Assembly (NCBI GenBank): GCA_963790305.1
Contig: CAWBOC010000009.1
Location: forward strand, 608,001-672,000
From: an uncultured Gemmatimonadaceae bacterium
GTDB taxonomy: Bacteria; Gemmatimonadota; Gemmatimonadetes; Gemmatimonadales; Gemmatimonadaceae
Length of the DNA: 64,000 nt
Reading direction: 5' to 3'
Positions 17,712-61,750 of the stretch are shown here, piece by piece (positions within the stretch are counted from its first letter, which is position 1; every line of letters starts with the position of its first letter). The position numbers and the translations under genes are program-made. Below the pieces are notes generated by a model that saw nothing but the letters and a program-made list of their open reading frames with translations, had not been told where the DNA came from and did not search any database.

Positions 17712-19107
17712 TCAGACGGCGTCGGACAGGCTCGTGAAGTTGAAGTCCCGCACCTTGATCGGTGGCATGACCACGGCGCCGCCAGCCTCCGTGCCCGCCA
17801 CGCGCATCGGCCGCCCCAGCATCTCCAGGTTGTTCAGCATGAACAGCGGCGACTCGTTGAACCGCAGATTGCGAATCGCCTTGGCGATCTTTCCGTTCTC
17901 GATGAGGAAGGTGCCATCGCGCGTGAGCCCCGTGTAGAGCACGGTGCGCGGGTCGACCTCGCGAAGATACCAGAGTCTCGTCACGAGAACGCCGCGCGGG
18001 GTGGAGCGAATCATGTCATCGAGAGAGGCCGTGCCCCCGAGCATCTTCACCGAGCTCGGGAATCCCGTGGGGGTGGTGTTGCTCTTCTGCGCCCAGAAGC
18101 GCGAGTAGTACAGCTGCTTCAGGACGCCGTTCTCGATCCAGACCTGGCGCCCCAACGGCAGCCCGTCGCCGTCGTACGGCTGGGCCAGCAGGTCCGGGTC
18201 GGTGGGATCGGAGATGAGCGTGACCCGCGAGTCCACCAGCTTTTCTCCGATCTTGTTGCCGCCGCCCTGCTTCACGAATGGGCTGCGGCCTTCATCGGCC
18301 GAGCGCGCATCGGCGTAGAACACCAGCAGCTGGACGAGATCAGCCACCGCCTGCGGCTCCAGAATCACCGTGTACCGCCCCGGCTCGATCGCGACCGGAC
18401 TGCGCGAGAGACGCGCCTTGTCGATGGCGCGCTTGCTCACTTCGGCGAAGTCGATCTTCGACCAGTCGTTGTCATCGGCGCCGACCCACCCGGAGCCGGT
18501 GCCATCCGACGTACGGACGGTGAGCGTGTAGTTCGCGGTGGTGGACCGGTGATACGCGAACTGGCCCGCCTTGTTACCGATGGCGTTGGACTGCGCCGAG
18601 GTGACGATGTAGCCGGCGGCCGCAAGATCTTTCGCGTCACGAGCAGGGCCTAACGCGGTCAGGGCCGCGCGCGCGCGATCATCGGGAGTCAGATTCGCCG
18701 TCCCGTCGAACCAGCCGTTGACCGTCGAGTATTGCTGAGCGCCAAGCGGCGGCATCGACTCGGGGTCGTCGGGCGCGAGACGCGCCAGGACCTCGGACTG
18801 CTCGACCGTTCGCCGCAACGACGCATCGGAAAGATCATTGGTCGTCACGGCAGCGTGCTTGGGACCGAACGCGCTCTCGATGACGACGTTCGCGTTGGTC
18901 ACGCCGCCCGACGTCGTCATCTGGTTGGCGGCGAAGCGGACGTTGCCCTGGTAGTTGCTGTCGATGGTCGACGCGGACCGACTCGGCCTTCGAGAATCCG
19001 ATCGCCCGCGCGACGATCGCCTGGGCTTCCTCGCGCGTCAGGATGTTTGCGTTGGCCTCGGCAGCAGGGCGAGGCGTCGCGGGAATCAACCGCTTCGGCG
19101 CGCTCAC
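17712..19107 (-). CDS. TldE/PmbA-type subunit, copy 2 (frameshift near 18970)
   Basis: PGRYTVILEP, TGLTRDGTFLIENG, NLRFNESP; N-terminus lies in ORF 18835..19107; no HExxxH. Confidence 0.88.
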
Positions 19108-20738
19108 GCTTTCCTCCCCGTATTGATCACGTTGATCTGACGGAAACGCGCCGGCGGGCAGCCGTGGCTGACCGCGTTGATCTGCGGCGGCTGGCCCTTG
19201 CCGTCGAAGAAGCTGGCCCCGAGCTCGTAGCTGCGCCGCCCGCCGATCATGTCCATGGAATTCCAGAAGTCGGTCGTCTTCATCTGATAGGCGACGTCCT
19301 TCAGCTGGCCGACGATCTTGCCGCCGCGGATCTCGTGGAAGACCTGCCCGCCGAACTGCGCGTTGTACCGCTGCTGATCGATGGAGAAGGACCCATCTCC
19401 GACGATCGCGATGCCGCGGTCGGTCTCGGCGATGATCTCATCCCAGCCGATGTCACGCTCGCCCGGCAGGAGCGAGACGTTCGGCATGCGCTGGAACTGC
19501 ACGCTCGCCCAGGAGTCGCCGTTGGAGCAGCCGTGCGACCGTGGTGTGACGTTCTGCTGGTCGTACCACCACTTCAGCCAGTTGGCCTGCTCACGCGTGG
19601 TCTGATAGTCGTTGAAGACGCCGTTCTTGACGATGAGGAAATCCTCGGGCTTCACGCCTTCGTCGTCATAGCCGATCGTGGCGCAGGCGCCCGGCTGTGA
19701 GCGATCGCCCTGCACGTTCATGAATGCGGGACCGTACTTGAGCTTGCCGAGCATCTTCTCCGGCGGCGCAATGAACGACGTGCCGGCGTAGTTGGCTTCG
19801 TAACCGAGCGCGCGGTCGAGCTCGGTGGGGTGCCCGATGGATTCGTGAATCGTGAGCCACAGATGCGACGGGTGGAGGATGAGATCGTATTTCCCCACCT
19901 CCACCGGCTTCGCCTTGAGCTTCGCAGCCGCCTCTTCCGCCCATTTCGGCGCATTGCCGACGAGGTCCTGGGCAATGACGTATTCGTAGCCGCGCCCAGC
20001 AGGCTGCACGACGCTCGACCGATTCTGGAAGTCCGAGAAGTCCGGCGCGACGGCGGTGATCTGCATCGGCACCCAGCTGCGGATGAGCGTCTGATCGATG
20101 AGCGATCCCTCGGTGCTGGCGAAGTGCCGGTCTTCCTTGACGAAGTACATCACACTGAAGACGTACTTCACCGTCGGCACCTTGAGCGCTTCGGCGTTGG
20201 CGCGCAGCAGCAGATCGACCTTCTGCTCGATCGGTACGGTCCAGGGGTCGATCTCGTAGCTGCTCTTCCAGGTGACGTTGCGATGCACTTCGGTTGGCGC
20301 CATCTCGACCGGCCGATCGCGCGCGATGCGGCTCGCTTTCGCGATCGCGACCGCCTCGCGTGCCGCCGATGCGACTCCATCGGCCGTGAGCGTGCGCGTG
20401 GCGCCAAACCCCCAGGTACCATCGACGAGCGCGCGAACGCCGCAGCCGATGGAATCGGTATCCACGACGTTGATGATCTGCTGCTCGCGCGTGACGATGA
20501 AGTTGTTCCGGTATTGGCCAATGCGGACGTCGGCGTACCCGGCGCCCGCATCACGAGCGGCGTCGAGCGCTCGCATCATGAGCTCGCGCGTCGGAACTTC
20601 GACATCCCGCGGTGGCGTTGGTTGCGTCGTCGGCGTCGGCGCCGGCACGGTTGCCGGGCCACCGCTCGCACAGGCGCCAGTCCAGAGCGCTGCCGCGGCG
20701 AGCGAGCCGTGCTTGAGGAAGTCTCGGCGGTCAGTCAT
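19104..20738 (-). CDS. tldD: TldD metalloprotease, copy 2, with Tat/lipoprotein signal
   Basis: DRRDFLK...TGAC signal; YADVR, HESIGHPTELD, QRMPNV, SHGCP. Confidence 0.92.
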   Translation of the reverse strand: MTDRRDFLKHGSLAAAALWTGACASGGPATVPAPTPTTQPTPPRDVEVPTRELMMRALDAARDAGAGYADVRIGQYRNNFIVTREQQIINVVDTDSIGCGVRALVDGTWGFGATRTLTADGVASAAREAVAIAKASRIARDRPVEMAPTEVHRNVTWKSSYEIDPWTVPIEQKVDLLLRANAEALKVPTVKYVFSVMYFVKEDRHFASTEGSLIDQTLIRSWVPMQITAVAPDFSDFQNRSSVVQPAGRGYEYVIAQDLVGNAPKWAEEAAAKLKAKPVEVGKYDLILHPSHLWLTIHESIGHPTELDRALGYEANYAGTSFIAPPEKMLGKLKYGPAFMNVQGDRSQPGACATIGYDDEGVKPEDFLIVKNGVFNDYQTTREQANWLKWWYDQQNVTPRSHGCSNGDSWASVQFQRMPNVSLLPGERDIGWDEIIAETDRGIAIVGDGSFSIDQQRYNAQFGGQVFHEIRGGKIVGQLKDVAYQMKTTDFWNSMDMIGGRRSYELGASFFDGKGQPPQINAVSHGCPPARFRQINVINTGRKA

Positions 20739-22112
20739 TTACACCGCGTCACTGAGGCTGGTGAAGTTGAAGTCGCGCACTTTGAGGGGCGGGACAACCA
20801 CCGCGACGCCCGGGCTGCCGCTCTCCGACGCGCTCACGCGCACAGGGCGTCCCATGGCTTCGACGTTGTTCAGCATGAAGATCGGCGACTCGTTGAAGCG
20901 CAGATTCTTCACAGCGTTCGTGATCTTGCCGTTCTCGATGAGGAAGGTGCCGTCGCGCGTGAGACCGGTGACGAGCAGTACGCGCGGATCCACCTGGCGG
21001 ATGTACCAGAAGCGGGTCACGAGAATTCCGCGCTGCGTGGACGCGATCAGCTCCTCGATCGTCGCCGTGCCGCCGCTCATCGAGAGCGATGCCACGAATG
21101 GAATAGGCTGCTTCCCACTCTTCTGCGCCCAGAACCGATCGTATGCGAGGTTGCGGACCACACCGTTCTCGATCCACACCGTGCGCGCCGTCGGAATTCC
21201 CTCGTTACTGAACGTGTTCGCCGGCGCCTCCGGATCGAGAGGGTCGGACACGATCGTCACACGCTCGTCGACGATCTTCATTCCGATCTTGTTGCCGCCG
21301 CCCTGCTTCGAGAAGAAGGAGCGTCCCTCGTCCGCGTTTCGTGCGTTGAGGGCGAAGCCCATGTTCTGCACGAGATTGCCAACCGCGGTGGGCTCGAGCA
21401 CGACGGTGTAGCGGCCCGGCTCAATCGCGACGGCGGACGCCGAGCGGCGGGCTTTCTCGATGGCGCGCGCGCCGAGCTCGGCGGGACGGAGGCGCGACCA
21501 GTCGTGATGTGCAGCGCCGGCCCAACCAGAGCCATTGCCGTCAGGAGTGCGCACCGTCGTTGTGAGCGCGGCCCCGGTGCCACGGGCGTACGCGAACAGT
21601 CCCTTCGAGTTCGCGACGGCGAACGAGCCGGCGTTCGTTTCGAGGTAGCCGGTACCATGCAATCCCGCGTCGCGCGTCGCCTGTGTGATGGCGCGAACGG
21701 CATCGGCACGGGCAACGGGATCGAGCGAGGCGGTCGTATCGCTCCAGGAGCGCGAGTCCGCGTACTGTTGTGGCTCGAGCTCGCCCATCTCCTCCGGATC
21801 TTCCGGCGCGAGCTTCGCGAGCCGCTCCGAAGTCTCGACGGCATAACGGAGCCCGGCGTCGTCGAGCTTGTTCGTGGTGACGTTCGCACTGCGCTTTCCG
21901 AACAGGCTGCGCACCGTGACCGTCGTGTTGAAGTCGTCGCCGCCGGTCGAGATCTGGTTGACCGCGAAGCGCGTGTTGCCGCGACTTCCGCTCTGCAACG
22001 TGACTCGCGTCGCATCCGCAGTGGCGAGCGCAAGCGCTCGCTTCGCCAACGCTTCCGCCTCGGCGCGACTGAGGTAGCGCGCCGGCTCGAGGAGTGAACG
22101 GGGAGCGCTCAC
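20739..22112 (-). CDS. TldE/PmbA-type subunit, copy 1
   Basis: TRFAVNQI, PGRYTVVLEP, TGLTRDGTFLIENG; no signal peptide, no HExxxH. Confidence 0.9.
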   Translation of the reverse strand: MSAPRSLLEPARYLSRAEAEALAKRALALATADATRVTLQSGSRGNTRFAVNQISTGGDDFNTTVTVRSLFGKRSANVTTNKLDDAGLRYAVETSERLAKLAPEDPEEMGELEPQQYADSRSWSDTTASLDPVARADAVRAITQATRDAGLHGTGYLETNAGSFAVANSKGLFAYARGTGAALTTTVRTPDGNGSGWAGAAHHDWSRLRPAELGARAIEKARRSASAVAIEPGRYTVVLEPTAVGNLVQNMGFALNARNADEGRSFFSKQGGGNKIGMKIVDERVTIVSDPLDPEAPANTFSNEGIPTARTVWIENGVVRNLAYDRFWAQKSGKQPIPFVASLSMSGGTATIEELIASTQRGILVTRFWYIRQVDPRVLLVTGLTRDGTFLIENGKITNAVKNLRFNESPIFMLNNVEAMGRPVRVSASESGSPGVAVVVPPLKVRDFNFTSLSDAV

Positions 22113-23731
22113 GCTTGTCTCCCCGTGTTGATGACGTTGACGTTCTTGAACCGAGCCGGCACGCAGCCGTGACTCACGGCGTTCGACTGGCTGGGCTGAC
22201 CCTTGCCGTCGTTGAAGGCGCCGCCGAGCATGTAGCTGTCGCGGCCTCCGATCATGTCCATGGAGTTCCAGAACTCCGGCGTGCGGAGCTGGTACGCGAC
22301 GTCTTTCAGCATGCCGACGATCTTTCCCCCGCGAATCTCGTAGAAGACCTGACCACCGAACTGCGCGTTGTATCGCTGCTGATCGATCGAGAACGAGCCT
22401 TCACCGACAATGGCGATGCCGCGATCGGTGGCGGCAATCAGATCGTCCCAGGAGTGATTCTGCTCGCCGGGAAGGAGCGAGACGTTCGGCATACGCTGGA
22501 ACTGGACGTCCGCCCACGATTGCGCGTACGAGCACCCATGCGAGCGTGTCTCGCGATTCTGCCGCGTGTACCACCACTCGAGCCAGGGCGCCTGCTCGCG
22601 GGTGGTCTGATAATCGTTGAAGACGCCGTTCTTGATGATCAGGAACTCTTCCGGTCGAACACCTTCATCGTCCCAGCCGACTGCCGAAAGCGAGCCCGGC
22701 TGCGACCGGTCGCCCTGCACGTTCATGAACTCGGGGCCGTACTTGAGGCTGCCGAGCATCTTGTCGGGCGGGGCAACGAACGATGTGCCGGCGTAGTTCG
22801 CCTCGTAGCCCATGGCGCGATCGAGCTCGGTGGGGTGCGCGATGGATTCGTGAATCGTGAGCCAGAGGTGGGACGGATGGAGAATGAGATCGTACCGACC
22901 GACCTCGACCGGCTTCGCCGAGAGCTTGCGGACTGCCTCTTCGGCCCAGCGTGGGGCGTTCTCGACGAGCTTCGCGTCGAGCACGTGCTCGTAGCCCTTT
23001 CCCATCGGCTGCACATCATTCGACTGGCGCGTCTGGAAATCGCCGGACGCGACCGCGGTGACGGTCAGCGAGGGTTGCGCTCGAAAGATCGTCTGCACGA
23101 CGTAGGTTCCGTCGGTGGTCGCCAGCGTTTTCTCTTCGCGCAGGAAGAACATCTGCGAGTTGACGAATCGCGCGCCCTGGACCCCGAGCGCGGCCGCGTT
23201 CGCCGCGAGCAGGAGCGCGGCCTTGTCTTCGATGGGCACGTCGAACGGGTCGAGTCGCGCGGGGCTGCGCCACGATCCGTCCGGCGTCGGCGTGACCGGT
23301 GCGAGCGTGACCGGGCGCACCATCGTGGTTCGATTCGCGCGCGCTTGCGTGACCGCCTGCCGCGCCACGCGGGCGACCTCTTCCCGCGTCAGATCACGAC
23401 TGGCGGCGAATCCCCATGCGCCGCCGACCAGCACGCGCACGCCGAAGCCGAAGGTCTCGTTATCGACGAGATTCTGAACGCGTTGCTCGCGCGTGAAGAT
23501 GGCCTGATTCCGATTCCGGCTGATGCGGACGTCGGCATAGCTCGCTCCGGCCGACTTCGCCGCATCGAGCGCCAGCATGGCCAGGTCCTTGAAGGTCGGA
23601 TCGCCAGTGGCAGTAGCGGTCGACGGCGCGGGAGCAGGGGGAGGGACGGTGGCCGGCGCGCATCCGGCGATTCCAATCGCCGCGCTTGCGGCCGCGGCTT
23701 GCGTGATGAATTCGCGTCTTGTCTGCGGCAC
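22109..23731 (-). CDS. tldD: TldD metalloprotease, copy 1, with Tat/lipoprotein signal
   Basis: TRREFIT...IAGC signal; HESIAHPTELD, QRMPNV, SHGCV. Confidence 0.92.
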   Translation of the reverse strand: MPQTRREFITQAAAASAAIGIAGCAPATVPPPAPAPSTATATGDPTFKDLAMLALDAAKSAGASYADVRISRNRNQAIFTREQRVQNLVDNETFGFGVRVLVGGAWGFAASRDLTREEVARVARQAVTQARANRTTMVRPVTLAPVTPTPDGSWRSPARLDPFDVPIEDKAALLLAANAAALGVQGARFVNSQMFFLREEKTLATTDGTYVVQTIFRAQPSLTVTAVASGDFQTRQSNDVQPMGKGYEHVLDAKLVENAPRWAEEAVRKLSAKPVEVGRYDLILHPSHLWLTIHESIAHPTELDRAMGYEANYAGTSFVAPPDKMLGSLKYGPEFMNVQGDRSQPGSLSAVGWDDEGVRPEEFLIIKNGVFNDYQTTREQAPWLEWWYTRQNRETRSHGCSYAQSWADVQFQRMPNVSLLPGEQNHSWDDLIAATDRGIAIVGEGSFSIDQQRYNAQFGGQVFYEIRGGKIVGMLKDVAYQLRTPEFWNSMDMIGGRDSYMLGGAFNDGKGQPSQSNAVSHGCVPARFKNVNVINTGRQA

Positions 23732-36380: not shown

Positions 36381-37028
36381 TTACGAGCCCCGTTTGCCTC
36401 GGGGCTTCACCGAGACGTAGGGTGAGTTTGCGACATGCCATCGAAGGGGCCAGTCCGCCGCTTTCGTGATGCCAATGCGCGGACCGGTGACGATCACGTC
36501 GTCCGGGTACGTAATCCCGCGGGTGATCATCAGCGGTGGGCTTTGAAGTGGAACGCCGTTGTGCTGCGGTCCGATGCCCAGCGCCGCGCAGAGCTTTCCC
36601 GGTCCGTTCGTTAGGTCGCGGTCGGCTTTCGCCGCGGGCCGGCGCGCTCGCATCAGCGGTACGCCTTCGAGTGGCTCGAGCGCGCGAACCAGGACCGCGC
36701 TGGGCTGACCGTGCTCGCGCGTGACCGCGTTGAAGCACCAGTGTACGCCGTAGATGAAGTAGACGTAGGCAATGCCGGGGGCTCCGTAGAGCGGCCGAGT
36801 TCGCTCGGTGAGCCCGGGTCCGGCGGCGTGGCAGGCGGGATCATGCTCCCCCAGGTACGCCTCCGTCTCTACGATGCGTCCCGCGGCGACCCCTTCCGGC
36901 GATCGACACCACAACACGGTACCAAGCAGCTCGCGAGAGACGATCTCCGTCTCGCGGTCGAAGAACGACGCCGGCAGCGCCTCGCCGATACGAGAACGCC
37001 GCGCGGTGGGCGCGGCGTCTCGGATCAC
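36381..37028 (-). CDS. mpg: 3-methyladenine DNA glycosylase (MPG/AAG type)
   Basis: RIVETEAYLG, YVYFIYGVHWC, VLVRALEP, GPGKLC, PRIGI. Confidence 0.95.
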   Translation of the reverse strand: MIRDAAPTARRSRIGEALPASFFDRETEIVSRELLGTVLWCRSPEGVAAGRIVETEAYLGEHDPACHAAGPGLTERTRPLYGAPGIAYVYFIYGVHWCFNAVTREHGQPSAVLVRALEPLEGVPLMRARRPAAKADRDLTNGPGKLCAALGIGPQHNGVPLQSPPLMITRGITYPDDVIVTGPRIGITKAADWPLRWHVANSPYVSVKPRGKRGS

Positions 37029-38821
37029 CCCTCGCCTCCGCTCGCGGCCGGCTTCTTCGCCCGGCCGCGTGGTGGACGGCGTCGTTTCGCCTTTGCCGCG
37101 GCCGTGCCCGCTCCAGCCGCGGTCTCGGGCGCTTCGGGCTTACCCTTCTTCGCGGTCTTGCGGGTGCGCGGCGCACGACTCCGCTTCTGCACCGGCTCTT
37201 TCGCCCGTGCGTCGGGAACAATGCTCTCCGGCGGACCGCCGAGCTCTGCTCCGGGCTCGCGGTCGAGCGGCTCGTCAGGCACCGCGGGCACTCCGAAGTC
37301 GACGACGCCGAGCGAAAGCAGCTCGGGTGGCAGCTCCATCGCACCACTGGTGCGTCCGCCACGTGAGCGCATCCCGCGACGGAATGACGCGGCAGTCGCC
37401 GCCGACCGGCCCGCCTGACTCTGCGACGGGACGGGAACCGCGGCCTGCAGCTGATCGGCAATCGGCGCGACGTCAGCTGCCGGCGCCAACTCCCAGTCAT
37501 CGCCGCGCTTCCGAAGATCGACGACGTTGGCGTCGTGCGCGTCGCGCAGGACGCGTACGAACATGCGCTCGTTGAGCGACTCGCTGTCGCGGCCGAGAAG
37601 ATCACGGGCCTTGCGACGCACGTCGCTGGCGAGCACCGGCGTATCCGCGCCACCGGTGAGAATGTCCACCGCCCGGCGAACGAGATCGAACGCCTCGTCC
37701 CTCGTGAGGCGCTCGCCCCCGGTGCCGATCCCATCACGCGCGGTATCCACGGCTTCGGGGCGTCGCTCCTCGACGGCGGGCGCTGGCGCCACCGCCTCGG
37801 TCGTTGCCGCGGCGGCAACAGCCGGCGTTTCGACGCGCGGCTCCTCGGTGCGCGGCTCGCGCTCGCGATCGCGACCACGCCCCCCACGCCGGCCACGCCC
37901 TCTCTCTTCCCGGCCTCGCCCGCGCGGCCGTTCCTCGCGCGGACGCGACTCCCCTTCGGTCGCTCGCGCGGCCGGACGAACCCCGTCACCCTCGGGAATG
38001 TCGATCTCGAGCTGGCCGTTCTCCAGCTTCGTCATCTTGAGGAGGCCACGCTCCGCGGCTTCCTGCGTGAACCGCGAGAACTTGGAGTGGCCGAGCGTCT
38101 TCTCGTCGAAGTTCGAATCGAGCTCCTGCATGACCTGCTTGAGCCGATCGGAGCGCATCACATCGCCATTCCGCTTCATGCGCTGGATGGCCTCTGTCAC
38201 CAGCTCCCAGGGGTCCTTCTTGACCAACTCTTCCTCGCCCGACTTCACGAGACCGGCCAGCGCGTTGTAGCTGTAGTACTCGTCGCAGTTCATCACCAGC
38301 AGATCGCTCGATGACTCGCGAATGCCCACGCCGATCACGTACTTGCCGTACTCCTTCAGCTTCGTCACGAGCGACGCGAAGTCCGAGTCGCCGGAGAGCA
38401 GGATGTACGTGCCGATCTCGGGCCGGGTGAAGACGAGCTCCATCGCGTCGACGGCGAGGCGAATGTCGGTGGCGTTCTTCTTCGACGATCCGTACGCGGG
38501 CGCCATGATCATGTCGATCGACGACTCGGCGAGCGGGACGATGTATTGCGGGTACCGACGCCAATCGGCATAGGCACGCTGCACGGCAACCTTCCCCTTG
38601 ATGATGTCCGAGGACAGGAGGTTGCGGAGCTCGTTGCCGAGGTCTGACCGGATCCCCATCGTGACGTTGTCGAAGTCGATGAGGAGCGCCGCGTTAGGCG
38701 CGTGGGGCGAGAAGGTCGCCTGGATGGGGGCCGCGGACATCGTGTGTGCCTGCGGGCCGCGGTGGATGGGTGTCGCCGCCGCACGCACGGGGGTGGCGGG
38801 ACGGGGGTGTCGTGGCTTCAT
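37025..38821 (-). CDS. NYN-domain ribonuclease with OST-HTH/LOTUS-like domain and long low-complexity tail
   Basis: IDFDN, RAYADW, KNATDIRL, LSGDSDF, FDEKTLGHSKFS. Confidence 0.9.
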   Translation of the reverse strand: MKPRHPRPATPVRAAATPIHRGPQAHTMSAAPIQATFSPHAPNAALLIDFDNVTMGIRSDLGNELRNLLSSDIIKGKVAVQRAYADWRRYPQYIVPLAESSIDMIMAPAYGSSKKNATDIRLAVDAMELVFTRPEIGTYILLSGDSDFASLVTKLKEYGKYVIGVGIRESSSDLLVMNCDEYYSYNALAGLVKSGEEELVKKDPWELVTEAIQRMKRNGDVMRSDRLKQVMQELDSNFDEKTLGHSKFSRFTQEAAERGLLKMTKLENGQLEIDIPEGDGVRPAARATEGESRPREERPRGRGREERGRGRRGGRGRDREREPRTEEPRVETPAVAAAATTEAVAPAPAVEERRPEAVDTARDGIGTGGERLTRDEAFDLVRRAVDILTGGADTPVLASDVRRKARDLLGRDSESLNERMFVRVLRDAHDANVVDLRKRGDDWELAPAADVAPIADQLQAAVPVPSQSQAGRSAATAASFRRGMRSRGGRTSGAMELPPELLSLGVVDFGVPAVPDEPLDREPGAELGGPPESIVPDARAKEPVQKRSRAPRTRKTAKKGKPEAPETAAGAGTAAAKAKRRRPPRGRAKKPAASGGEG

Positions 38822-45977: not shown

Positions 45978-46583
45978 TCAATACCCCGGCACCACGGGCG
46001 CCACGCGATGCCGACTGCCCTTGTGCTCGAGCAGCTCGAGCTGGTGCAGCACCGCCGATCCGTAGAAGAGCTTGATGTAGTGGGCCTGCGTCGGAGTCAG
46101 ACGGCGCACTGCCCAGCTCAGGTGCACGAAGTGGGGCTCCACCGGGGCCGTGAGCGGGTGCATCCCGATCTCTTCGGCCATGTGGTTTCCCTTCCGCGTG
46201 TTGCAAGGCGAGCAGGCCGTCACGACGTTCGCCCACTCGTTGGTGCCGCCACGCGACAGCGGAATGAGGTGGTCGCGCGTGAGCGACTCCCGAGGCTTGA
46301 GCTCGGGGATGCCGCGTCCGCAGTATTGGCACCGGTAGTGGTCGCGCGCGAACAGGAACGTGTTGGTCACCTGACGACGGAACCGGCGCGGAACATGGAT
46401 GAACCGCGTCAGCCGGATCACAGCCGGCCGTGGCATCGCAAGCCGCTCGGATCGTACGACACGATCCGCGTCAGCCTCGACGATTTCCGCCTTGCCATCG
46501 AGAACGAGCCGCAGGGCCCGACGCATGGGAACCATGGTCAGAGGCTCGAACGAGGCGTTAAGGGCCAAACATCCCTGAATCAC
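45978..46583 (-). CDS. HNH endonuclease (McrA-like)
   Basis: LALNASFEPL, RDHYRCQYCG, TRDHLIPLSRGG, NVVTACSPCNTRKG; GGAGG RBS. Confidence 0.93.
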   Translation of the reverse strand: MIQGCLALNASFEPLTMVPMRRALRLVLDGKAEIVEADADRVVRSERLAMPRPAVIRLTRFIHVPRRFRRQVTNTFLFARDHYRCQYCGRGIPELKPRESLTRDHLIPLSRGGTNEWANVVTACSPCNTRKGNHMAEEIGMHPLTAPVEPHFVHLSWAVRRLTPTQAHYIKLFYGSAVLHQLELLEHKGSRHRVAPVVPGY

Positions 46584-46740
46584 GCCAACCTCCGCTGGCG
46601 CATACGGAAACTCCCGCCACCGTGTCCGGGGCGGGAGTGACACGACGACACGCGCGACGTCGCGCCTCTCAGCGCCGGACGACGATCGGCGCCGATACTC
46701 CCTATTACACTGACGAAGCGGAAATCGTGCCGCAACCCCC

Positions 46741-53507: not shown

Positions 53508-54669
53508 TCACACTTCGCGCACGAGCAGGGCCAGTGCGCGCTCGATCTCATCGCGCGTGGTGTAGAGGTGCGGCGAGAGACGTATGGCACCCTCGCGCAG
53601 AGCGCAGACGATTCCGGCGCGCGCGAGCTGCTCGCTGACGCGCTCGCCATTTTTCACCCGCACGGTGACGATGCCGGCACGCCGCCGAGGCTCGGCGGGG
53701 GTGATGACAATTGCTCCGGCGTCACGCAACCGCGACATCATCGCGTCGACCAGGGAGCTCACATGCGCGGCAATGCGCGTGACGCTGACATCGAGCAGCA
53801 ATTCTACGCTCGCGCAGAAGGCGGCCAGATCCTGATAGGGGAGCGTGCCGACCTCGAAGCGGCGAGCGTCGTCGTACCAGACAAGATCGTAGTCGACGAG
53901 GCGATTGAAGTCGTGCGACCCGCGCACGGCCATCCATCCGATCTCGCGTGGCTCGAGCTGTTGGACGAGATCGCGCCGGATGTAGGTGAAACCTGTTCCC
54001 CAGGGCGACAGCAGCCACTTCTGCCCGCCGCAGGCCAGGATGTCGATCTTGCAGGCGGGTGCATTCGAGCTCACGCGCGCCAACGCCCTGAATGGCATCG
54101 ACGACGAAGTAGATACCACGCTCGCGGCACGCGCGGCCAATACGCTCGAGATCGACCGTGTAGCCGCTCGCGAACGAGACCCAGGATAACGTGAGGACCT
54201 TCACGCGTGGGCGATCAAGGGCCTCGACGATCCGCTCCTCGTGAGGCAGCCCGGTCGGTGTGCAGCGAATCTGCTCGAAGGTGACGCCTTCGCGCGCAAG
54301 CGCCATCCAGGGATAGACGTTGGCGGGAAATTCCCGATCGGAGGACACGACGATGTCGCCCGAGCGAAGGGGCAGGCAGCGCGCGGCGATGTTGAGCCCG
54401 TGGGAGGTGTTCGTCGTGAGGGCAATCTCCCCCGCCGCGGCGCCAACCAGCCGCGCGGCGAGCGCCCGCGCACGATCCATGACCTCGAACTCCATTTCGT
54501 CGCTTATGCGCCAGGGCTCGCCGCGTAAGTCGTTCCAGGAGGCGAGAGCCGCTCGCGCCCGCATCGGCAGCGGACCGGTGGACGCGTGATTGAGATAGAT
54601 GCGATCCCCGCGTGCCGTCCACGGGAACTCGACGCGTCGTAAGGCTTCCAGATCGTAAGGTTCAGTCAC
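53508..54669 (-). CDS. Class V PLP aminotransferase/cysteine desulfurase-like (frameshift near 54065)
   Basis: YLNHASTGP, VDAIQGVG, GGQKWLLSPWGTG, RFEVGT, IRLSPHLY. Confidence 0.88.
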
Positions 54670-54703
54670 GCTTGACGTAAGGCTGGGTGCGAGCAGTAGG
54701 TCC

Positions 54704-55540
54704 CTAAACGGTTCGCGGATCCAACGCATCGCGCAATGCATCGCCCAGCAGGTTGAAGCCGAGGACGGTGACGCCGATCGCGAGGCCGGGAAAGAGGGAG
54801 GTCCAGGGCGAGGATCGCAGCTGGCTCAGGTCGCGCCCGTCAGCGATCATCGCGCCCCAGCTTGGCGTCGGGGGCTGAACGCCGAGGCCGAGGAACGAGA
54901 GCGCCGCTTCCGCCATGATCGCGCCGGCCATCCCCAGCGTCGTCGCGATCACCACCGGGGCGATCACGTTCGGAAGGACGTGGCGTGCGATGATGCGGCG
55001 GTCCGACGTCCCGAGTGCGCGCGCAGCGTGGACGTACTCGAGCTGCCTGACGACGAGCACCTGGCCGCGCACCAGCCGCGCCATGCCCGCCCAACCAACG
55101 ATGCCGACCGTCACGAATACCACGATCAAGGATGGCTGCAGCGCGGCGACCATCGCGATGAGGAGCAGCAGCGTCGGAAACGCCAGCGTGACATCGGCGA
55201 GCCGCATGACCAGGTCATCGATCCATCGGCCGAAGTAGCCGGCGATGAGCCCGAGCGTCAGCCCAATGGCGAGCGCGATACTCTGAGAAATCAGGCCGAC
55301 GGCGAGGGAAATCCGGGCTCCGTACACGAGGCGCGCCCACACGTCGCGCCCCTGGATGTCGGTTCCCATCCAATGCTCGGCCGACGGCGGCTGCAGCTGA
55401 CGCAAAAGGTCGACGCGAATGGGGTCGTGTCGCGCGAGGAGCGGGGCGAGAATCGCGAGGAGCAGGAGCATCGCCACCACGATCAGCCCAATGCGCGCTC
55501 GCGTATCGCGCCGCAGACGCGCCCACACCTCGGCGATCAC
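54704..55540 (-). CDS. Peptide/nickel ABC transporter permease (DppC/OppC type)
   Basis: HWMGTDIQGRDV, EYVHAARALG, EAALSFLGLG, WGAMI, GDALRDALDP. Confidence 0.93.
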   Translation of the reverse strand: MIAEVWARLRRDTRARIGLIVVAMLLLLAILAPLLARHDPIRVDLLRQLQPPSAEHWMGTDIQGRDVWARLVYGARISLAVGLISQSIALAIGLTLGLIAGYFGRWIDDLVMRLADVTLAFPTLLLLIAMVAALQPSLIVVFVTVGIVGWAGMARLVRGQVLVVRQLEYVHAARALGTSDRRIIARHVLPNVIAPVVIATTLGMAGAIMAEAALSFLGLGVQPPTPSWGAMIADGRDLSQLRSSPWTSLFPGLAIGVTVLGFNLLGDALRDALDPRTV

Positions 55541-56049
55541 GACGCGGTCACCACCGCGCGTCCGCAGACGCGGACGAGCATGCACCGGGCGCATCGGCGC
55601 GGATCGTGATGATTCGGCGGCACGTCAGCGGCCGTCAGGTCGGCGCGCATGTTGGCGATCGTGCGCAGCAGCTCTCCTCGCACTCGGTCGGTGAAGTCGA
55701 TACGGAAGGTACGGTTCGCGTATCGGAGATAGCCATACCCGGCGAAGCGCGGCTCCGTTTCCTCCAGCAGCAAACAATACGCGGCGAGCTGCACGACGTC
55801 GCGCAGCCAGGGGGAATCGCTCTCGCGCGTCGGCTTGAGCTCGACCGGGGCGATCCGCCCCTGCTCCTCCACCAGATAATCAGGCTTGCCGGCGATGCCG
55901 TGACGTGGCGAGCGGAGCACGCGCGACGGACGCGAGACGACGGAATCGCTCGCGACCACGCGTCCGCGCAGCCCGGAGCGCCGGAGCAGCATCACGCTCA
56001 GGATCCCCAGCACGATCGCGACCGCTACGACCGCGAGCACGATCATCAT
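55537..56049 (-). CDS. Membrane-anchored Cas4-like PD-(D/E)XK nuclease, C-terminal part
   Basis: N-terminal TM; GKPDYL...VELK, QLAAYC, CARC-x5-C; GGAG RBS and ATGA overlap with upstream gene. Confidence 0.85.
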   Translation of the reverse strand: MMIVLAVVAVAIVLGILSVMLLRRSGLRGRVVASDSVVSRPSRVLRSPRHGIAGKPDYLVEEQGRIAPVELKPTRESDSPWLRDVVQLAAYCLLLEETEPRFAGYGYLRYANRTFRIDFTDRVRGELLRTIANMRADLTAADVPPNHHDPRRCARCMLVRVCGRAVVTAS

Positions 56050-56306
56050 CGCCAGGTGCTCCATGCCAGCGCCGCGAGTGCCCCCGCCACGAGAAGCGCG
56101 GCAAGCCACCCTAACGCGCGTGCCCACCACAGCGACCACGCGTGCCGCCAATGCGCGGCGTGGCCCGCGCTGAAGCGCTTTCCTTCCGTGTCCGTTGTCA
56201 CACCCCGGACCGCGCGCAACCACCATGCGCGGCGACAATACGCGTACTCGCCCAGCTCCGAAGCCGAGATGAAGCGATCGGGCCTCGGTTCTGGTGCCGC
56301 GTTCAT
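56046..56306 (-). CDS. Small protein carrying the Cas4-type N-terminal Cys motif plus C-terminal TM
   Basis: ISASELGEYAYCRRAWWL...GHAAH then a hydrophobic helix; ATGA overlap with lpxL stop. Confidence 0.8.
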   Translation of the reverse strand: MNAAPEPRPDRFISASELGEYAYCRRAWWLRAVRGVTTDTEGKRFSAGHAAHWRHAWSLWWARALGWLAALLVAGALAALAWSTWR

Positions 56307-57232
56307 GCCGCGGGATCGCGAAGCTCGGCGGGCGTATCGGAGGGCTGGTGCTTCCAGCGCCGATGCTGCCAGAAGTACTGCTCGGGCGTCTTGCGGACCA
56401 AGCCTTCGAGGATGCGCGTGTACGAGGCCACGATGCCATCAATGTCGCTCTCGCGGTCCCCCGTCTCCTCGTAGGGCACATCCTCGAACGAGAGATGGAA
56501 GCGGCCGTCGGGCTCGCGGACGGCCGAGACGAACAGCGTCGGTGCGTGGTAGCGGAGGGTGAACACCGCGGGCCCGCGCGGCGTTTTCGCCGGGCGTCCG
56601 AAGAACGGCACGTGCGTCGACGCGAGATTGAGCACGCCCTGGTCGGCGAGAAACCCGATCGCGCGTCCCTCCTTGAGCGATCGCGTCGTTCGTCGCACGG
56701 CTTCGGCATCGTAGACGACCGTCATGCCGAGGTCGGCGCGCGTCTGGTTGAGGTAGCGATCGAAGATCGGGTTGGACATGCGTCGCACGATGACGTCGAC
56801 GGGAACCCCTCGCGCGGCAATGTACGCGCCCGAGACCTCCCAATTCCCGAAGTGACCCGCGATGAGCAACAGGCCCCGCTTCGCCTCGATCGCGCGCTCG
56901 ACGAGATCCCACCCCGTCGTCCGCGAGACGAGATCGAGAATACCCTTTCGACCGAGCGATGGCATGAGCGCCGTCTCGACGGCGAGCCGGCCGAGATGGT
57001 CGTACGAGGCGCGCGCGACCTGCGCGACGCGATCAGCGTCCCATTCGGGAAATGCGGCGGCGATCTGCCGCTCTACCACGCTTCGCCGCACGCCGAATGG
57101 TGCGTAGCCCAGGCGGCCAAGTGCGCCCCCGAGCGAGGAGGCACGTCGCCACCCAACGGCTGAGAGCGTGGCCACCGCGGCTCGCAGCCCAACGTACTCC
57201 AGCCGGTGCGCCATGCTGACGGGCCGCGTCAT
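56303..57232 (-). CDS. lpxL: Lipid A late acyltransferase (LpxL/HtrB family)
   Basis: GHFGNWE, FLADQ, VPFFG, PEQYFWQHRRWK. Confidence 0.92.
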   Translation of the reverse strand: MTRPVSMAHRLEYVGLRAAVATLSAVGWRRASSLGGALGRLGYAPFGVRRSVVERQIAAAFPEWDADRVAQVARASYDHLGRLAVETALMPSLGRKGILDLVSRTTGWDLVERAIEAKRGLLLIAGHFGNWEVSGAYIAARGVPVDVIVRRMSNPIFDRYLNQTRADLGMTVVYDAEAVRRTTRSLKEGRAIGFLADQGVLNLASTHVPFFGRPAKTPRGPAVFTLRYHAPTLFVSAVREPDGRFHLSFEDVPYEETGDRESDIDGIVASYTRILEGLVRKTPEQYFWQHRRWKHQPSDTPAELRDPAA

Positions 57233-60187: not shown

Positions 60188-61750
60188 CTACCGGCGCGGG
60201 GTGAGCAACGCGATGGGGAGAATCATCTCCTCCGGAGTGGCGCCGCCGTGCAGGAAAGATCCGCGGTACCGCGTCTGATACTCGCGCAGCTTGGTCGGGT
60301 AGACGAAGAAGGAGTCGCCCGTCGCCAGCAGAATGTTGCCTCCCATCCCGCGACGCGGCAGCCGGAGGTCGTCCGAGTTGGTGAACAAGAGGGCATACTC
60401 CGGACGCTCCGCGCGCAGATCCTCGCCGAACTTGTAGCGGAGGTTCGCGGTCGCATCGCGCTTCGCGAACACGGTCGCTGGCGACAGGCAGTGAATCGAG
60501 CCGTGGTCCGTCGTGAGCAACACCGGAATACGACGCCGCTGCGCCTCACGCAGCAGCGTGAACAATCCCGAGCGCTGGAACCACTGCCGCGTGATCTGCC
60601 GGAGGGCGATCTCGTCGCGCGCGACCTCGAACAGAATGGCTGATTCGCTGCGTCCGTGCGTGAGCAGGTCCACGAAGTTGAAGACGAACGCGCCGATCCC
60701 CTCGGCCGGCAGCGCACTCGGGAGCCGCCGCACGAGATCGTCGGAGTCGGCGGCGGTCGAGATCTTCTCGTAGCGCACCGGGTAGGGCTTTCCGGCCTCG
60801 GCCAGCTGCGCCTCGAGCAGCTGCCGCTCGTGCGCGTTGAGTGTTTCGTCCTCGCGGTCGCCCCACCAATCAGGGAAGCGCGCGGCGATCTCCCCCGGGA
60901 ACAGGCCGCTGAACAGCGCGTTGCGCGAGTACGGCGTGGCCGTGGGAAGAATCGAGAAGTAGTGCGTGGTCTCGACCTCGAACATCGGCGCCAGCAGCGG
61001 CATGAGGATGCGCCACTGGTCGAGTCGCAGGCAGTCGACGACGACGAACATCGCCGCGCGCTCGCGCTCGAGGATCGGCAGCAGAAACTCGCTCACGACG
61101 TCGATCGACAGCGGCGGGCGATCCCCCTCGAGATCGCGCAACCAGCGTGGATACTCGCGGCGAATGTACGCCGCGAAGTCGCGGCGCATGTTGGGATACA
61201 TCCCCTCGAGCGACTCGTGGAGCCCCATCTCCCCGATCTGCGTCAGCTCGATGCTCCAGTCGACGAGCTCGCCGTACCGCTCGATCCATCCCCGCCAATC
61301 GAGCGCGTGGTCGCGCTCGTTCTGGAGCGCGCGAAACCGCTCGACGAATTGCCGCGCCACCGCCTGCTGTCGGATCTGCGGACCTTCGAGGATGCGTGTG
61401 ACGACGGTGAGCACCTGCCGCGGATTGATCGGCTTGACGAGGTAGTCACTGACGTTGACGCCGATCGCCTCCCGCATGGTCGTGTCTTCCTCACTCTTCG
61501 TGACCATGACGATGGGGAGCGCGGGATCGACATCGCGCAGCTCACGAAAGGCTTCCATGCCGCGCTTGCCGGGCATCTGCTCGTCGAGCAGGACGAGGCC
61601 GTACGGCCGACGCCTGAGCATCTCGACGGCATCGTCGGCGTTGGTCGCCGAGTCGACGTCGTATCCTTTGTCACGCAGGAAGATCCGGTGCGACTCGAGC
61701 AGGTCCGCTTCGTCGTCCACCCAGAGAATGCTCTTCGCGGGAGGGGGCAT
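60188..61750 (-). CDS. PorX-like response regulator (receiver, helical bundle, PglZ/alkaline phosphatase domain)
   Basis: ILWVDDE, LLDEQMPG, VTKSEE, VVDCLRLDQW, SILPTATPYSRNALFSG, TTDHG, FLHGG. Confidence 0.9.
   Translation of the reverse strand: MPPPAKSILWVDDEADLLESHRIFLRDKGYDVDSATNADDAVEMLRRRPYGLVLLDEQMPGKRGMEAFRELRDVDPALPIVMVTKSEEDTTMREAIGVNVSDYLVKPINPRQVLTVVTRILEGPQIRQQAVARQFVERFRALQNERDHALDWRGWIERYGELVDWSIELTQIGEMGLHESLEGMYPNMRRDFAAYIRREYPRWLRDLEGDRPPLSIDVVSEFLLPILERERAAMFVVVDCLRLDQWRILMPLLAPMFEVETTHYFSILPTATPYSRNALFSGLFPGEIAARFPDWWGDREDETLNAHERQLLEAQLAEAGKPYPVRYEKISTAADSDDLVRRLPSALPAEGIGAFVFNFVDLLTHGRSESAILFEVARDEIALRQITRQWFQRSGLFTLLREAQRRRIPVLLTTDHGSIHCLSPATVFAKRDATANLRYKFGEDLRAERPEYALLFTNSDDLRLPRRGMGGNILLATGDSFFVYPTKLREYQTRYRGSFLHGGATPEEMILPIALLTPRR

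Follow-up and report, generated by a model that had tools for sequence, protein, structure and literature searches.

Two adjacent genes of a Gemmatimonadaceae bacterium probably encode the halves of one membrane-held, non-CRISPR Cas4-family nuclease

Within the window, by which we mean the whole 64,000-nucleotide stretch of an uncultured Gemmatimonadaceae genome that was analysed, two short genes on the minus strand lie between a gene of lipid A biosynthesis and an ABC permease gene. We refer to their products, of 86 and 170 amino acids, as the N and C subunits. The features of the locus are the following.

54704..55540, minus strand: Opp/Dpp-type ABC permease gene (DppC/OppC-like), downstream neighbour, whose GTG start overlaps the C-gene stop (GTGA)
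55537..56049, minus strand: C-subunit gene (170 aa and stop), with an N-terminal membrane helix and then a Cas4 PD-(D/E)XK core with CxxCx5C
55564..55593, minus strand: C158-x2-C161-x5-C167, three proposed C-terminal cluster ligands, placed by invariance and codons
55834..55884, minus strand: catalytic motifs P61-D62 ... E75-x-K77 of the C subunit, placed by invariance and codons
55975..56049, minus strand: C-subunit membrane helix at the extreme N terminus, followed by RRSGLRGR (helix 2-30 of the model in 175-aa numbering)
56046..56049, minus strand: ATGA overlap of the N-gene stop and the C-gene start, read from the sequence
56046..56306, minus strand: N-subunit gene (86 aa), a predicted cytoplasmic Cas4 N-terminal segment with a C-terminal membrane helix (tail anchor)
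56052..56126, minus strand: N-subunit membrane helix, residues about 61-85, from hydropathy, with one residue before the stop
56059..56062, minus strand: GGAG ribosome-binding-like motif 9 nt upstream of the C-gene ATG, read from the sequence
56151..56165, minus strand: G48-x3-H52 motif of the N subunit, whose histidine is proposed to bind metal in the nuclease site
56235..56237, minus strand: Cys24 codon of the N subunit, proposed first ligand of a 4Fe-4S cluster
56303..57232, minus strand: lipid A biosynthesis acyltransferase gene (LpxL-like; PF03279, E 4e-43), upstream neighbour, whose stop overlaps the N-gene start (ATGA)

The original prediction, made from the letters of this stretch, had described the two genes, their motifs, the ATGA overlap, the GGAG and the 4-nt outer junctions, and each was found where it had been placed, with the coordinates of both genes confirmed. 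It had also put the pair among envelope genes, and the run of 4-nt overlaps does join them: the junctions of the glycosyltransferase gene with lpxL and of lpxL with the N gene are both ATGA, that of the C gene with dppC is GTGA, and the same-strand neighbours include LpxL, a glycosyltransferase and MsbA. The junction between the two genes is an ATGA or GTGA overlap in seven of eight related loci and a longer overlap in the eighth, and the GGAG motif before the C gene was found in most relatives of the same genus. The C gene could start at either of two ATG codons, at 56049 (170 aa) or upstream at 56064 (175 aa), and the upstream one is not kept as a start in relatives. A scan of the locus stretch found no promoter-like site. 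On the minus strand it found a single terminator-like site, inside msbA, and none downstream of msbA as far as 53300; the number of sites in all was not above that in shuffled sequence.

The larger protein resembles the Cas4 family by itself. It matched positions 53-158 of the 160-position Cas_Cas4 profile (PF01930; E 1.4e-8, 35.4 bits against a cut-off of 22.7), scored 63.6 bits with TIGR00372, narrowly under the 65-bit cut-off, and in a profile search of PDB sequences matched 8d3l (E 2.9e-11). Its motifs are P61-D62, E75-L-K77, Q92-LAA-Y96 and C158-x2-C161-x5-C167. D40, G59, P61, D62, E75, K77, C158, C161 and C167 were invariant in 62 homologues, and both Q92 and Y96 of the QhxxY motif were kept in at least 90% of these sequences. 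An AlphaFold model of the C subunit (pLDDT 94.3) was most similar by Foldseek to 7mi5_A (E 2.4e-7, TMq 0.60), with further matches to 8d3l_I (E 3.5e-6), 4r5q (E 1.1e-4), 4ic1 (E 1.7e-4) and 7mi4, and, outside Cas4, to Dna2 (5ean, E 4e-5), MGME1 (5zyv), AdnAB and EXO5.

The Cas4 likeness of the N subunit, taken alone, is weak. Its matches to PDDEXK_1 (profile positions 2-43, E 0.0028) and Cas_Cas4 (positions 4-39, E 0.15) fell below the Pfam cut-off, its TIGR00372 score was also below the cut-off, and in a sequence-profile search of the PDB its best Cas4 match had an E value of 0.27, with chance antibody matches ranking above it. In that weak match the G-x3-H of the N subunit aligns with the G-x3-H of the Cas4 protein Pcal_0546 (4r5q). 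The segment ISASELGEYAYCRRAWWL at residues 13-30 contains Cys24, GHAAH corresponds to G48-H52, and A15, C24, W28, W29, G48 and H52 were invariant in 40 homologues. By analogy with Cas4 as described in the available part of PMC13621843, the G-x3-H motif would supply a histidine of the metal site. As the two proteins match complementary parts of the Cas_Cas4 profile, we conclude that one Cas4 domain is divided over two proteins, with the split at about profile position 43-53. This division accounts for the database labels given to the two halves, 'truncated Cas4' and 'hypothetical protein'.

A more trivial reading is that a single gene has been broken by an assembly error or a recent frameshift. 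Such damage does occur in the neighbourhood: the window holds a class V aminotransferase gene with an apparent frameshift, and a public relative, L027, has indels in the corresponding locus. L027 looked at first like a single-chain form within the Gemmatimonadaceae; its 1-nt insertion relative to close relatives and a second indel mark it as an assembly or mutational artefact, and we rejected it. However, every one of the eight related genomes with both halves has the two-frame layout. A first genome scan found it in 69 of 80 public loci, which belong to Gemmatimonadaceae and Chloroflexota, and a second scan in 61 of 78 new loci (58 with the halves adjacent, 3 with them apart); the public loci with the split layout come from two domains of life. 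Junction types vary among these loci, a whole gene (YkuD) lies between the halves in 13 loci of the first scan, the invariant residues are kept in both halves, and the exact 170-aa protein is already on record from other assemblies. A membrane helix was present in all 40 N subunits and all 62 C subunits, so that conservation of the two-gene, two-helix layout across genomes, which the original prediction had singled out for checking, is borne out. Because the layout is conserved across genomes, the locus is not a sequencing error, and we consider a broken gene exceedingly improbable.

The ATGA overlap could instead be a site of programmed frameshifting or stop read-through, yielding one hairpin polypeptide like that of the archaeal relatives described below. 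The constant +2 frame offset at the Gemmatimonadaceae junctions and the existence of single-chain relatives are in keeping with this. Among the Chloroflexota, however, the offset may be 0, 1 or 2, spacers reach 260 nt, and the stop may be TGA, TAA or TAG; moreover, some loci have a gene between the halves, in some genomes the two are on separate contigs, and the second gene has its own GGAG and ATG, properly spaced. Recoding into a single chain is therefore very improbable.

The single-chain relatives (80 kept loci, all archaeal) align with the small protein at their N terminus and with the large protein at their C terminus, with 2-4 helices between. Two of them passed the TIGR00372 cut-off of 65 bits (P0153, 98.7 bits; P0222, 76.5 bits). 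These membrane-embedded Cas4 proteins of Thermoplasmatota (Poseidoniales, Methanomassiliicoccales and others) share with our pair the N-terminal Cys/His segment, the core and the insertion point, but are one polypeptide with 2-4 helices and have other gene neighbourhoods. The two-gene form is that of Chloroflexota, Gemmatimonadaceae, Methanothrix and some Thermoplasmatales, and one gene is found in most Thermoplasmatota. The original prediction had counted homologues with one continuous open reading frame as evidence against a divided enzyme. Such homologues exist, as distant archaeal relatives only, and because they retain the inserted helices, they explain the split instead of contradicting it.

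Charge distribution around the two helices suggests how the proteins sit in the membrane. In 40 N subunits the mean number of lysines and arginines was 2.88 before the helix and 0.72 after it, where the tail has a mean length of 3 residues. In 62 C subunits the mean was 0.1 before the helix and 3.53 in the next 15 residues. The outer ends of both helices are thus about 3 residues long, with the positive charges on the side of the soluble domain, and both soluble parts are predicted from this to be cytoplasmic. Placement of the cysteine motifs on opposite sides of the membrane, which had been named as a result that would speak against the idea, is not what the charges predict.

We then considered whether the soluble parts could dock, as the original prediction had suggested examining by co-folding. 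Three runs gave ipSAE values of 0.82, 0.81 and 0.82 against 0.02 for the best control. In calibration, 116 of 157 solved complexes attained that mark, as did 2 of 215 mismatched pairs; our runs, unlike the calibration, used custom alignments and an accompanying ligand, and the halves of a split gene may pass by their likeness to solved Cas4 structures. The partner pLDDT was 70-72, at least 93% of contacts were common to the runs, and 149-172 contacts formed the interface. N residues 8-38 are predicted to meet C residues 87-99, 132-152 and 157-169; N residue 24 touches C residue 150, and C residues 157, 161-163 and 166-167 belong to the interface. Every confident contact is made by the soluble parts, with N residues 8-38 taking part, and the helices contribute none. 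The docking model lends no support to the suggestion in the original prediction that cluster and nuclease assemble only when the two membrane helices pair. The earlier idea of a heterodimer, with four cysteines and an active site spread over two polypeptides, is thus supported by the conserved layout and by the predicted docking.

These data also bear on whether the large subunit might be the whole enzyme, with the small protein a regulator or membrane chaperone only. The large subunit folds confidently in silico by itself, and the solo-Cas4 of Methanosarcina mazei, according to the available part of Rentz et al. 2025 (PMC12501428), is still an active nuclease when it lacks its cluster; that protein was purified as a tag-free, high-oligomer form. 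In the first scan, the 4 kb around the C gene contained no N gene in 7 of 80 loci. Nevertheless, in all five such genomes tested an N gene turned up at a greater distance or on a different contig (E 1e-23 to 1e-28), its product carries an invariant Cys and G-x3-H that match the N-terminal motifs of Cas4, and the predicted interface is large. We therefore regard a self-sufficient large subunit as quite unlikely.

The reading we favour, and hold to be likely, is that the products of the two genes are the subunits of a single membrane-held, non-CRISPR Cas4-family PD-(D/E)XK 4Fe-4S nuclease at the cytoplasmic face. The N subunit would be tail-anchored, and its 55-residue cytoplasmic part would bring Cys24 together with the metal-site histidine of G-x3-H. 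The C subunit would insert a short N-out helix into the inner membrane and hold its domain in the cytoplasm, where it would give D62, E75-x-K77, Q92-x3-Y96, C158, C161 and C167. Docking of the soluble parts would rebuild the Cas4 fold, so that both the cluster, with 1+3 ligands, and the active site, with the histidine and D/E/K, would span the subunit interface. The two helices may each form one arm of a membrane hairpin, unbroken in the archaeal single chains and cut here at its outer turn. We infer cluster binding and membrane location for the pair, and by analogy with Cas4, AddB and Dna2 its activity would be metal-dependent cleavage of DNA ends. This two-protein design is a concrete, testable model.

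Cas4 is known as a soluble helper in CRISPR spacer capture, and many Cas4 genes are of the 'solo' kind. CRISPR-associated Cas4 (PF01930/TIGR00372; 8D3L, 7MI4/7MI5, 4IC1, 4R5Q) shares with the present proteins the PD-(D/E)XK core, QxxxY, the 1+3 cysteines and the fold, but here the domain comes from two polypeptides with one membrane helix each, whereas canonical Cas4 is a soluble single chain. Nor does the locus resemble a CRISPR adaptation module, with no cas gene among the 56 window ORFs scanned. The absence of cas1 from the window, noted in the original prediction, extends to the genome, which is 94% complete and in which Cas1 (PF01867) was not found; the C subunit is the sole Cas4 match in it.

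Other nucleases offer partial parallels. The Fe-S 'staple' nucleases AddB, AdnAB, Dna2, EXO5 and MGME1 have the same nuclease fold as the C subunit. In AddB, Dna2 and EXO5 the Fe-S ligands are likewise cysteines that come from the two ends of the domain, and the nuclease domains of all five are soluble, lie within one polypeptide and are often fused to helicase modules; we know of none recorded as membrane-inserted. EndA of S. pneumoniae and NucA of B. subtilis are membrane-tethered nucleases of DNA uptake with folds unrelated to Cas4. They share the tether with our pair but face outward, whereas the pair is predicted to face the cytoplasm.

Among published Cas4 proteins, solo-Cas4 (Hudaiberdiev et al. 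2017, PMC5704561) is likewise a Cas4-family gene outside CRISPR-cas, and the context here is one of chromosomal housekeeping genes, away from both CRISPR-cas and mobile elements. The available part of that study describes a monophyletic solo-Cas4 in many Chloroflexi, which is plausibly the large subunit of the present family; in this part of the text the word 'membrane' appears once and 'split' never, and there is no mention of membrane helices or of a second gene. In a full-text literature search no paper was found that describes a Cas4 embedded in the membrane or encoded by two genes, the single-chain archaeal form included; an apparent match to DUF839 proved irrelevant. The locus thus represents a large, conserved branch of solo-Cas4 that is predicted to be membrane-built, in its bacterial form from two small proteins sharing a cluster and a catalytic site, and its design suggests some handling of DNA at the membrane that lies outside any known pathway.

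Neighbours of the pair elsewhere are often envelope genes too, but they depend on the lineage and there is no fixed partner. In the first scan the pair was hosted by an frr-uppS-cdsA-rseP cluster, with RseP directly upstream in 35 of 80 loci; UppS, CdsA and RseP are the neighbours in Chloroflexia, while in Anaerolineae a YkuD L,D-transpeptidase gene lies between the halves and the gene before the N gene encodes a translin-like nucleic-acid-binding protein. Such company might mean that the proteins serve envelope biogenesis rather than DNA, perhaps sensing redox state through an Fe-S cluster or acting as a phosphodiesterase on a lipid-linked substrate, since same-strand envelope neighbours occur in three separate bacterial arrangements (LpxL/glycosyltransferase/MsbA, UppS/CdsA/RseP and YkuD). 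Against this, the RecB/Cas4-type nuclease motifs, QxxxY included, are all invariant or nearly so, the structural matches of the C subunit are all DNA nucleases, the archaeal relatives lie among tRNA-modification and transcription genes and not envelope genes, the translin-like gene suggests nucleic acid, and the lpxL-dppC operon also exists without the pair. A role confined to the envelope is accordingly improbable.

Another reading, which goes back to the original prediction and its possible action on DNA entering the cell, makes the pair a guard, a tethered nuclease that would break down DNA of phages or plasmids, or DNA taken up by transformation, as it reaches the cytoplasmic side of the membrane. 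Its predicted fixed site at the cytoplasmic face would suit such a role, and its spread in the Gemmatimonadaceae is patchy and accessory, as in defence systems: a match was found in 12 of 41 genomes, and the pair behaves as an indel between lpxL and dppC, so that in this family it is dispensable. However, no defence, competence or helicase gene was found near the pair among the 56 window ORFs scanned, and PADLOC returned Cas4 models and a weak DruK match only, so that we rejected membership of a defence system. Furthermore, in the class that holds Oscillochloris the pair is present in 53 of 81 sampled genomes, and in the first scan it lay in the housekeeping frr-uppS-cdsA-rseP cluster, a pattern that looks vertical and not like a defence island. 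We consider a guard at the point of entry unlikely.

Our best guess is that the two-subunit nuclease has a housekeeping role in the processing or surveillance of membrane-located DNA ends, not in CRISPR adaptation. A bolder extension, which we think doubtful, would make the membrane-inserted Cas4 family an undescribed ancient housekeeping enzyme that acts on DNA at the cytoplasmic membrane face, is coupled to envelope growth and is gated by its inter-subunit Fe-S cluster and composite active site; one such task might be to remove or process DNA ends, chromosomal or incoming, at sites of membrane and wall construction. In view of the cluster-free activity in the available part of PMC12501428, the shared cluster need not control catalysis.

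In a tree of C subunits, 15 from Gemmatimonadota and the window's own protein formed one clade (SH-aLRT 100), which fell among Chloroflexota when the tree was rooted on the archaeal single-chain forms; the support for the nesting node is only 88, and we therefore claim no donor for the Gemmatimonadaceae pair. A link to Fe-S assembly was also considered, through the class V aminotransferases found both in the window and close to the archaeal genes, and dropped because they fall into different subfamilies (cysteine-desulfurase-like and BhcA/PhnW-like) and are only 26% identical over 107 residues. The aminotransferase gene of the window, the one with the apparent frameshift, lies two genes downstream of the pair.

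The candidate membrane-anchored Cas4-type nuclease is encoded by two adjoining ORFs, read from the sequence:

55537-56049, minus strand, large-subunit (C) gene, 170 aa
56046-56306, minus strand, small-subunit (N) gene, 86 aa

The TGA stop of the N gene overlaps the ATG start of the C gene as ATGA, with GGAG 9 nt upstream of that ATG. The small protein contains ISASELGEYAYC24RRAWWL, then G48HAAH52 and a hydrophobic helix that stops one residue short of the stop codon. The large protein begins with a hydrophobic helix and RRSGLRGR, followed by P61-D62, E75-L-K77, Q92-LAA-Y96 and C158-x2-C161-x5-C167 (175-aa numbering, counted from an upstream ATG at 56064). Several relatives lack a start codon at the position of ATG 56064, so the conserved start is the one within ATGA; the 170-aa form is already a database record. 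The original prediction, which had described these ORFs, motifs, helices, overlap and GGAG site, was correct in all checkable details. In Pfam, NCBIfam and PADLOC alike, the two proteins matched successive segments of a single Cas4 profile: the small one weakly, at about positions 2-43 (E 0.002-0.15), and the large protein at positions 53-158 of 160, scoring 35.4 bits in Pfam (cut-off 22.7) and 63.6 bits against TIGR00372 (cut-off 65). Databases name the halves 'Cas4', 'Dna2/Cas4 domain-containing protein' or 'hypothetical protein'. Modelled alone (pLDDT 94.3), the large subunit best matched the Cas4 structures 7mi5, 7mi4 and 8d3l, then Dna2, MGME1, 4r5q, 4ic1, ACE1, AdnAB and EXO5; its sequence profile also matched 8d3l (E 2.9e-11), 7mi4, 4r5q and 4ic1.

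The pair is the sole Cas4 match in this genome (94% complete), in which no Cas1 match was found. As originally noted, the window lacks cas1 and cas2, and its 56 scanned ORFs include no cas, competence or UvrD-type genes; it is ordinary chromosome encoding Rho, an MltG-like protein, Fpg, TyrS, a transglycosylase and others. The pair is a Cas4-family nuclease by motifs, profile and fold, and a solo-Cas4 by context. It differs from every described Cas4 in being made from two genes and, by prediction, membrane-inserted, an architecture that we regard as solid. The portion of Hudaiberdiev et al. 2017 (PMC5704561) considered here reports a monophyletic solo-Cas4 in many Chloroflexi and does not mention membrane helices or a second gene; its supplementary files may include the genes of this family. 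Excerpts of Rentz et al. 2025 (PMC12501428) describe a Methanosarcina mazei solo-Cas4 that was purified without a tag, in the form of a high-oligomer complex, and whose Fe-S cluster is dispensable for cleavage. Full-text literature searches yielded no account of a Cas4 that is membrane-embedded or split.

We asked how widely the two-gene layout is conserved. A six-frame search of 41 related genomes, this one included, matched the large subunit in 12, some weak matches possibly being ordinary Cas4; by rank, the match was present in 7 of 8 other same-genus genomes, 10 of 24 in the family and 1 of 16 from two sister families. In all eight related loci holding both halves, the halves lie in different frames with the same offset, joined by an ATGA overlap (six), a GTGA overlap (one) or a longer overlap (one). 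Scanning one genome from each species with a profile then gave 518 encoding stretches, of which the best 80 loci (64 Chloroflexota, 15 Gemmatimonadota and one MAG labelled Gracilibacteria) were analysed. A separate, same-strand N gene lay upstream in 69 of these; it was not seen in ten, three of them cut by contig ends, and one (L027) appeared fused. Junctions varied: the frame offset is 0, 1 or 2, each of the three stop codons is used, and spacings run from -13 to +260 nt. The halves are separated in 13 Anaerolineae loci by an entire gene, for a secreted YkuD L,D-transpeptidase (public loci L035, L037, L045-L048, L055, L061, L065, L084, L088, L089 and L092). In five of five tested genomes without an N gene within 4 kb of the C gene, one was found at a greater distance or on a different contig (E 1e-23 to 1e-28). 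A second scan, which drew on more distant members and overlapped the first in places, added 78 new loci: 58 with adjacent halves, 3 with halves apart, 1 single ORF and 16 without an N gene (5 truncated). The added adjacent pairs include some from Methanothrix and Thermoplasmatales archaea, Blastocatellia, and single gammaproteobacterial and Patescibacteria MAGs. The two-gene layout is therefore conserved, with split halves in 8/8 related, 69/80 first-scan and 61/78 second-scan loci, and on these comparisons the split locus is neither an error nor a broken gene. We rejected L027 as a true single-chain form: in this public Gemmatimonadaceae MAG (L027:3680-4520), a 1-nt insertion and a second indel relative to close relatives merge the two frames, with loss of both the first helix and the CxxC motif, probably through assembly error.

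Both halves are under constraint. D40, G59, P61, D62, E75, K77, C158, C161 and C167 are invariant in 62 large subunits, as are A15, C24, W28, W29, G48 and H52 in 40 small subunits. The invariant cysteines would therefore divide the four cluster ligands 1+3 between the small and large polypeptides, as proposed. In Cas4 SSO0001, according to PMC13621843, the G-x3-H histidine ligates the catalytic metal. Since the assignment draws on a weak alignment to 4r5q and on single-chain homologues, we only infer that H52 is its equivalent; the small subunit would then supply this histidine and the large subunit the D/E/K of the active site.

Co-folding from alignments of the two subunits, with a 4Fe-4S cluster included, gave ipSAE values of 0.82, 0.81 and 0.82, whereas the highest of three controls was 0.02 (partner pLDDT 70-72; at least 93% of contacts common between runs). 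The mark used is met by 116/157 solved complexes and 2/215 mismatched pairs, in a calibration that was ligand-free and used other alignments. On the N side the confident interface covers residues 8-38, Cys24 among them; on the C side it covers residues 87-99, 132-152 and 157-169, the last being the cysteine region; neither membrane helix takes part. Because the halves of a split gene can pass through resemblance to solved Cas4 structures, the result indicates likeness rather than binding.

A membrane helix is predicted in all 40 small and all 62 large subunits. Mean K+R counts fall from 2.88 to 0.72 across the small-subunit helix and rise from 0.1 to 3.53 across that of the large subunit; the outer ends average three residues. 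With positive charge on the soluble-domain side of both helices, the positive-inside rule predicts that both soluble parts are cytoplasmic, rather than on opposite sides of the membrane, which had been named as evidence against the proposal. Most single-chain forms have an even number of helices, in keeping with this placement.

Homologues with one continuous ORF had likewise been named as contrary evidence. When 1.84 billion cluster representatives were searched exhaustively, 1097 proteins matched at E <= 0.001, of which 419 reached E <= 1e-10. The best 150 of the 1097 comprised 118 large-subunit-only proteins (150-224 aa) with an N-terminal helix, 13 single chains (243-357 aa) with an N-terminal Cys/His segment, 2-4 helices and the core, 5 other long proteins, 12 fragments or helix-less proteins and 2 unclear cases. 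A scan for the single-chain clade found a relative encoded in 444 of 498 stretches; all 80 kept loci are archaeal, and the clade spans Thermoplasmata, Poseidoniales and Methanomassiliicoccales. Single chains therefore exist, but in an archaeal clade that keeps 2-4 helices between the ends. Because these ends align to the window's two proteins, the bacterial pair corresponds to a membrane-hairpin Cas4 cut at the hairpin's outer turn.

The pair sits in a run of genes for an MsbA-like ABC exporter, a glycosyltransferase, an LpxL-like acyltransferase, N, C, an OppC/DppC-like permease and a class V aminotransferase, in the same order in all relatives with the pair. Four consecutive 4-nt overlaps join genes of the run, with no terminator-like sites between the genes so joined. 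Eight same-family genomes gave no large-subunit match, and in seven of them lpxL is directly followed by dppC (6/7 without G015, a related genome flagged unpublished), so that the Gemmatimonadaceae pair is accessory, an insertion or deletion in an operon also found without it. Gemmatimonadaceae large subunits, the window's own included, group in a single clade (SH-aLRT 100) that falls among those of Chloroflexota; the nesting node has a support of only 88, too little to settle which way a transfer went. Downstream of dppC, the class V aminotransferase (cysteine-desulfurase-like superfamily; 53508-54741, minus strand), one ORF in relatives, is here two overlapping ORFs matching Pfam positions 1-190 and 187-370, owing to a frameshift or to an assembly error in this genome. 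The gene immediately upstream of the msbA-like one (60188-61750, also minus strand) encodes a fusion of a response-regulator receiver domain with a PglZ domain. The minus strand also encodes four tandem TldD/PmbA-family metallopeptidase paralogues (17712-23731), a 598-aa NYN-domain protein (37025-38821) and a 221-aa HNH endonuclease (45978-46643).

In Chloroflexia, the pair lies downstream of frr-uppS-cdsA-rseP, with RseP directly upstream in 35 loci. Envelope genes adjoin bacterial pairs in three unrelated arrangements, a recurrence that is suggestive but was noted post hoc; as no partner is universal, context does not fix the role of the pair. Two small conserved genes of no known family lie ~100-1100 nt downstream of the C gene in Chloroflexia loci (L028-L087), encoding an acidic protein of ~85 aa (19 loci) and one of ~110 aa with a CxxC ... 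CxxC zinc-ribbon-like motif (33 loci). In the class containing Oscillochloris, 53 of 81 sampled genomes, of unstated completeness, have a full-length large subunit with helix (best E <= 1e-42; 51/79 without two positive genomes flagged unpublished), and the number rises to 61 of 81 when any match at E <= 1e-10 is counted. In 19 Anaerolineae loci, a translin-like gene (301 bits against NCBIfam NF011160, cut-off 291; Pfam Translin weak, E 6e-4) precedes the N gene, even where the C gene is elsewhere; in the loci with a YkuD gene between the halves, it adjoins the N gene on the upstream side. Archaeal single-chain genes neighbour genes for an NTPase, Trm1, TruD, RNA polymerase subunit L and a PLD-type nuclease-like protein. 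In 17 Thermoplasmatota loci (for example, L198:1694-3751), a PLD-family protein with a lamin-tail domain, matching NucT and DISARM DrmC models below their cut-offs, is encoded directly upstream of the single-chain membrane Cas4.
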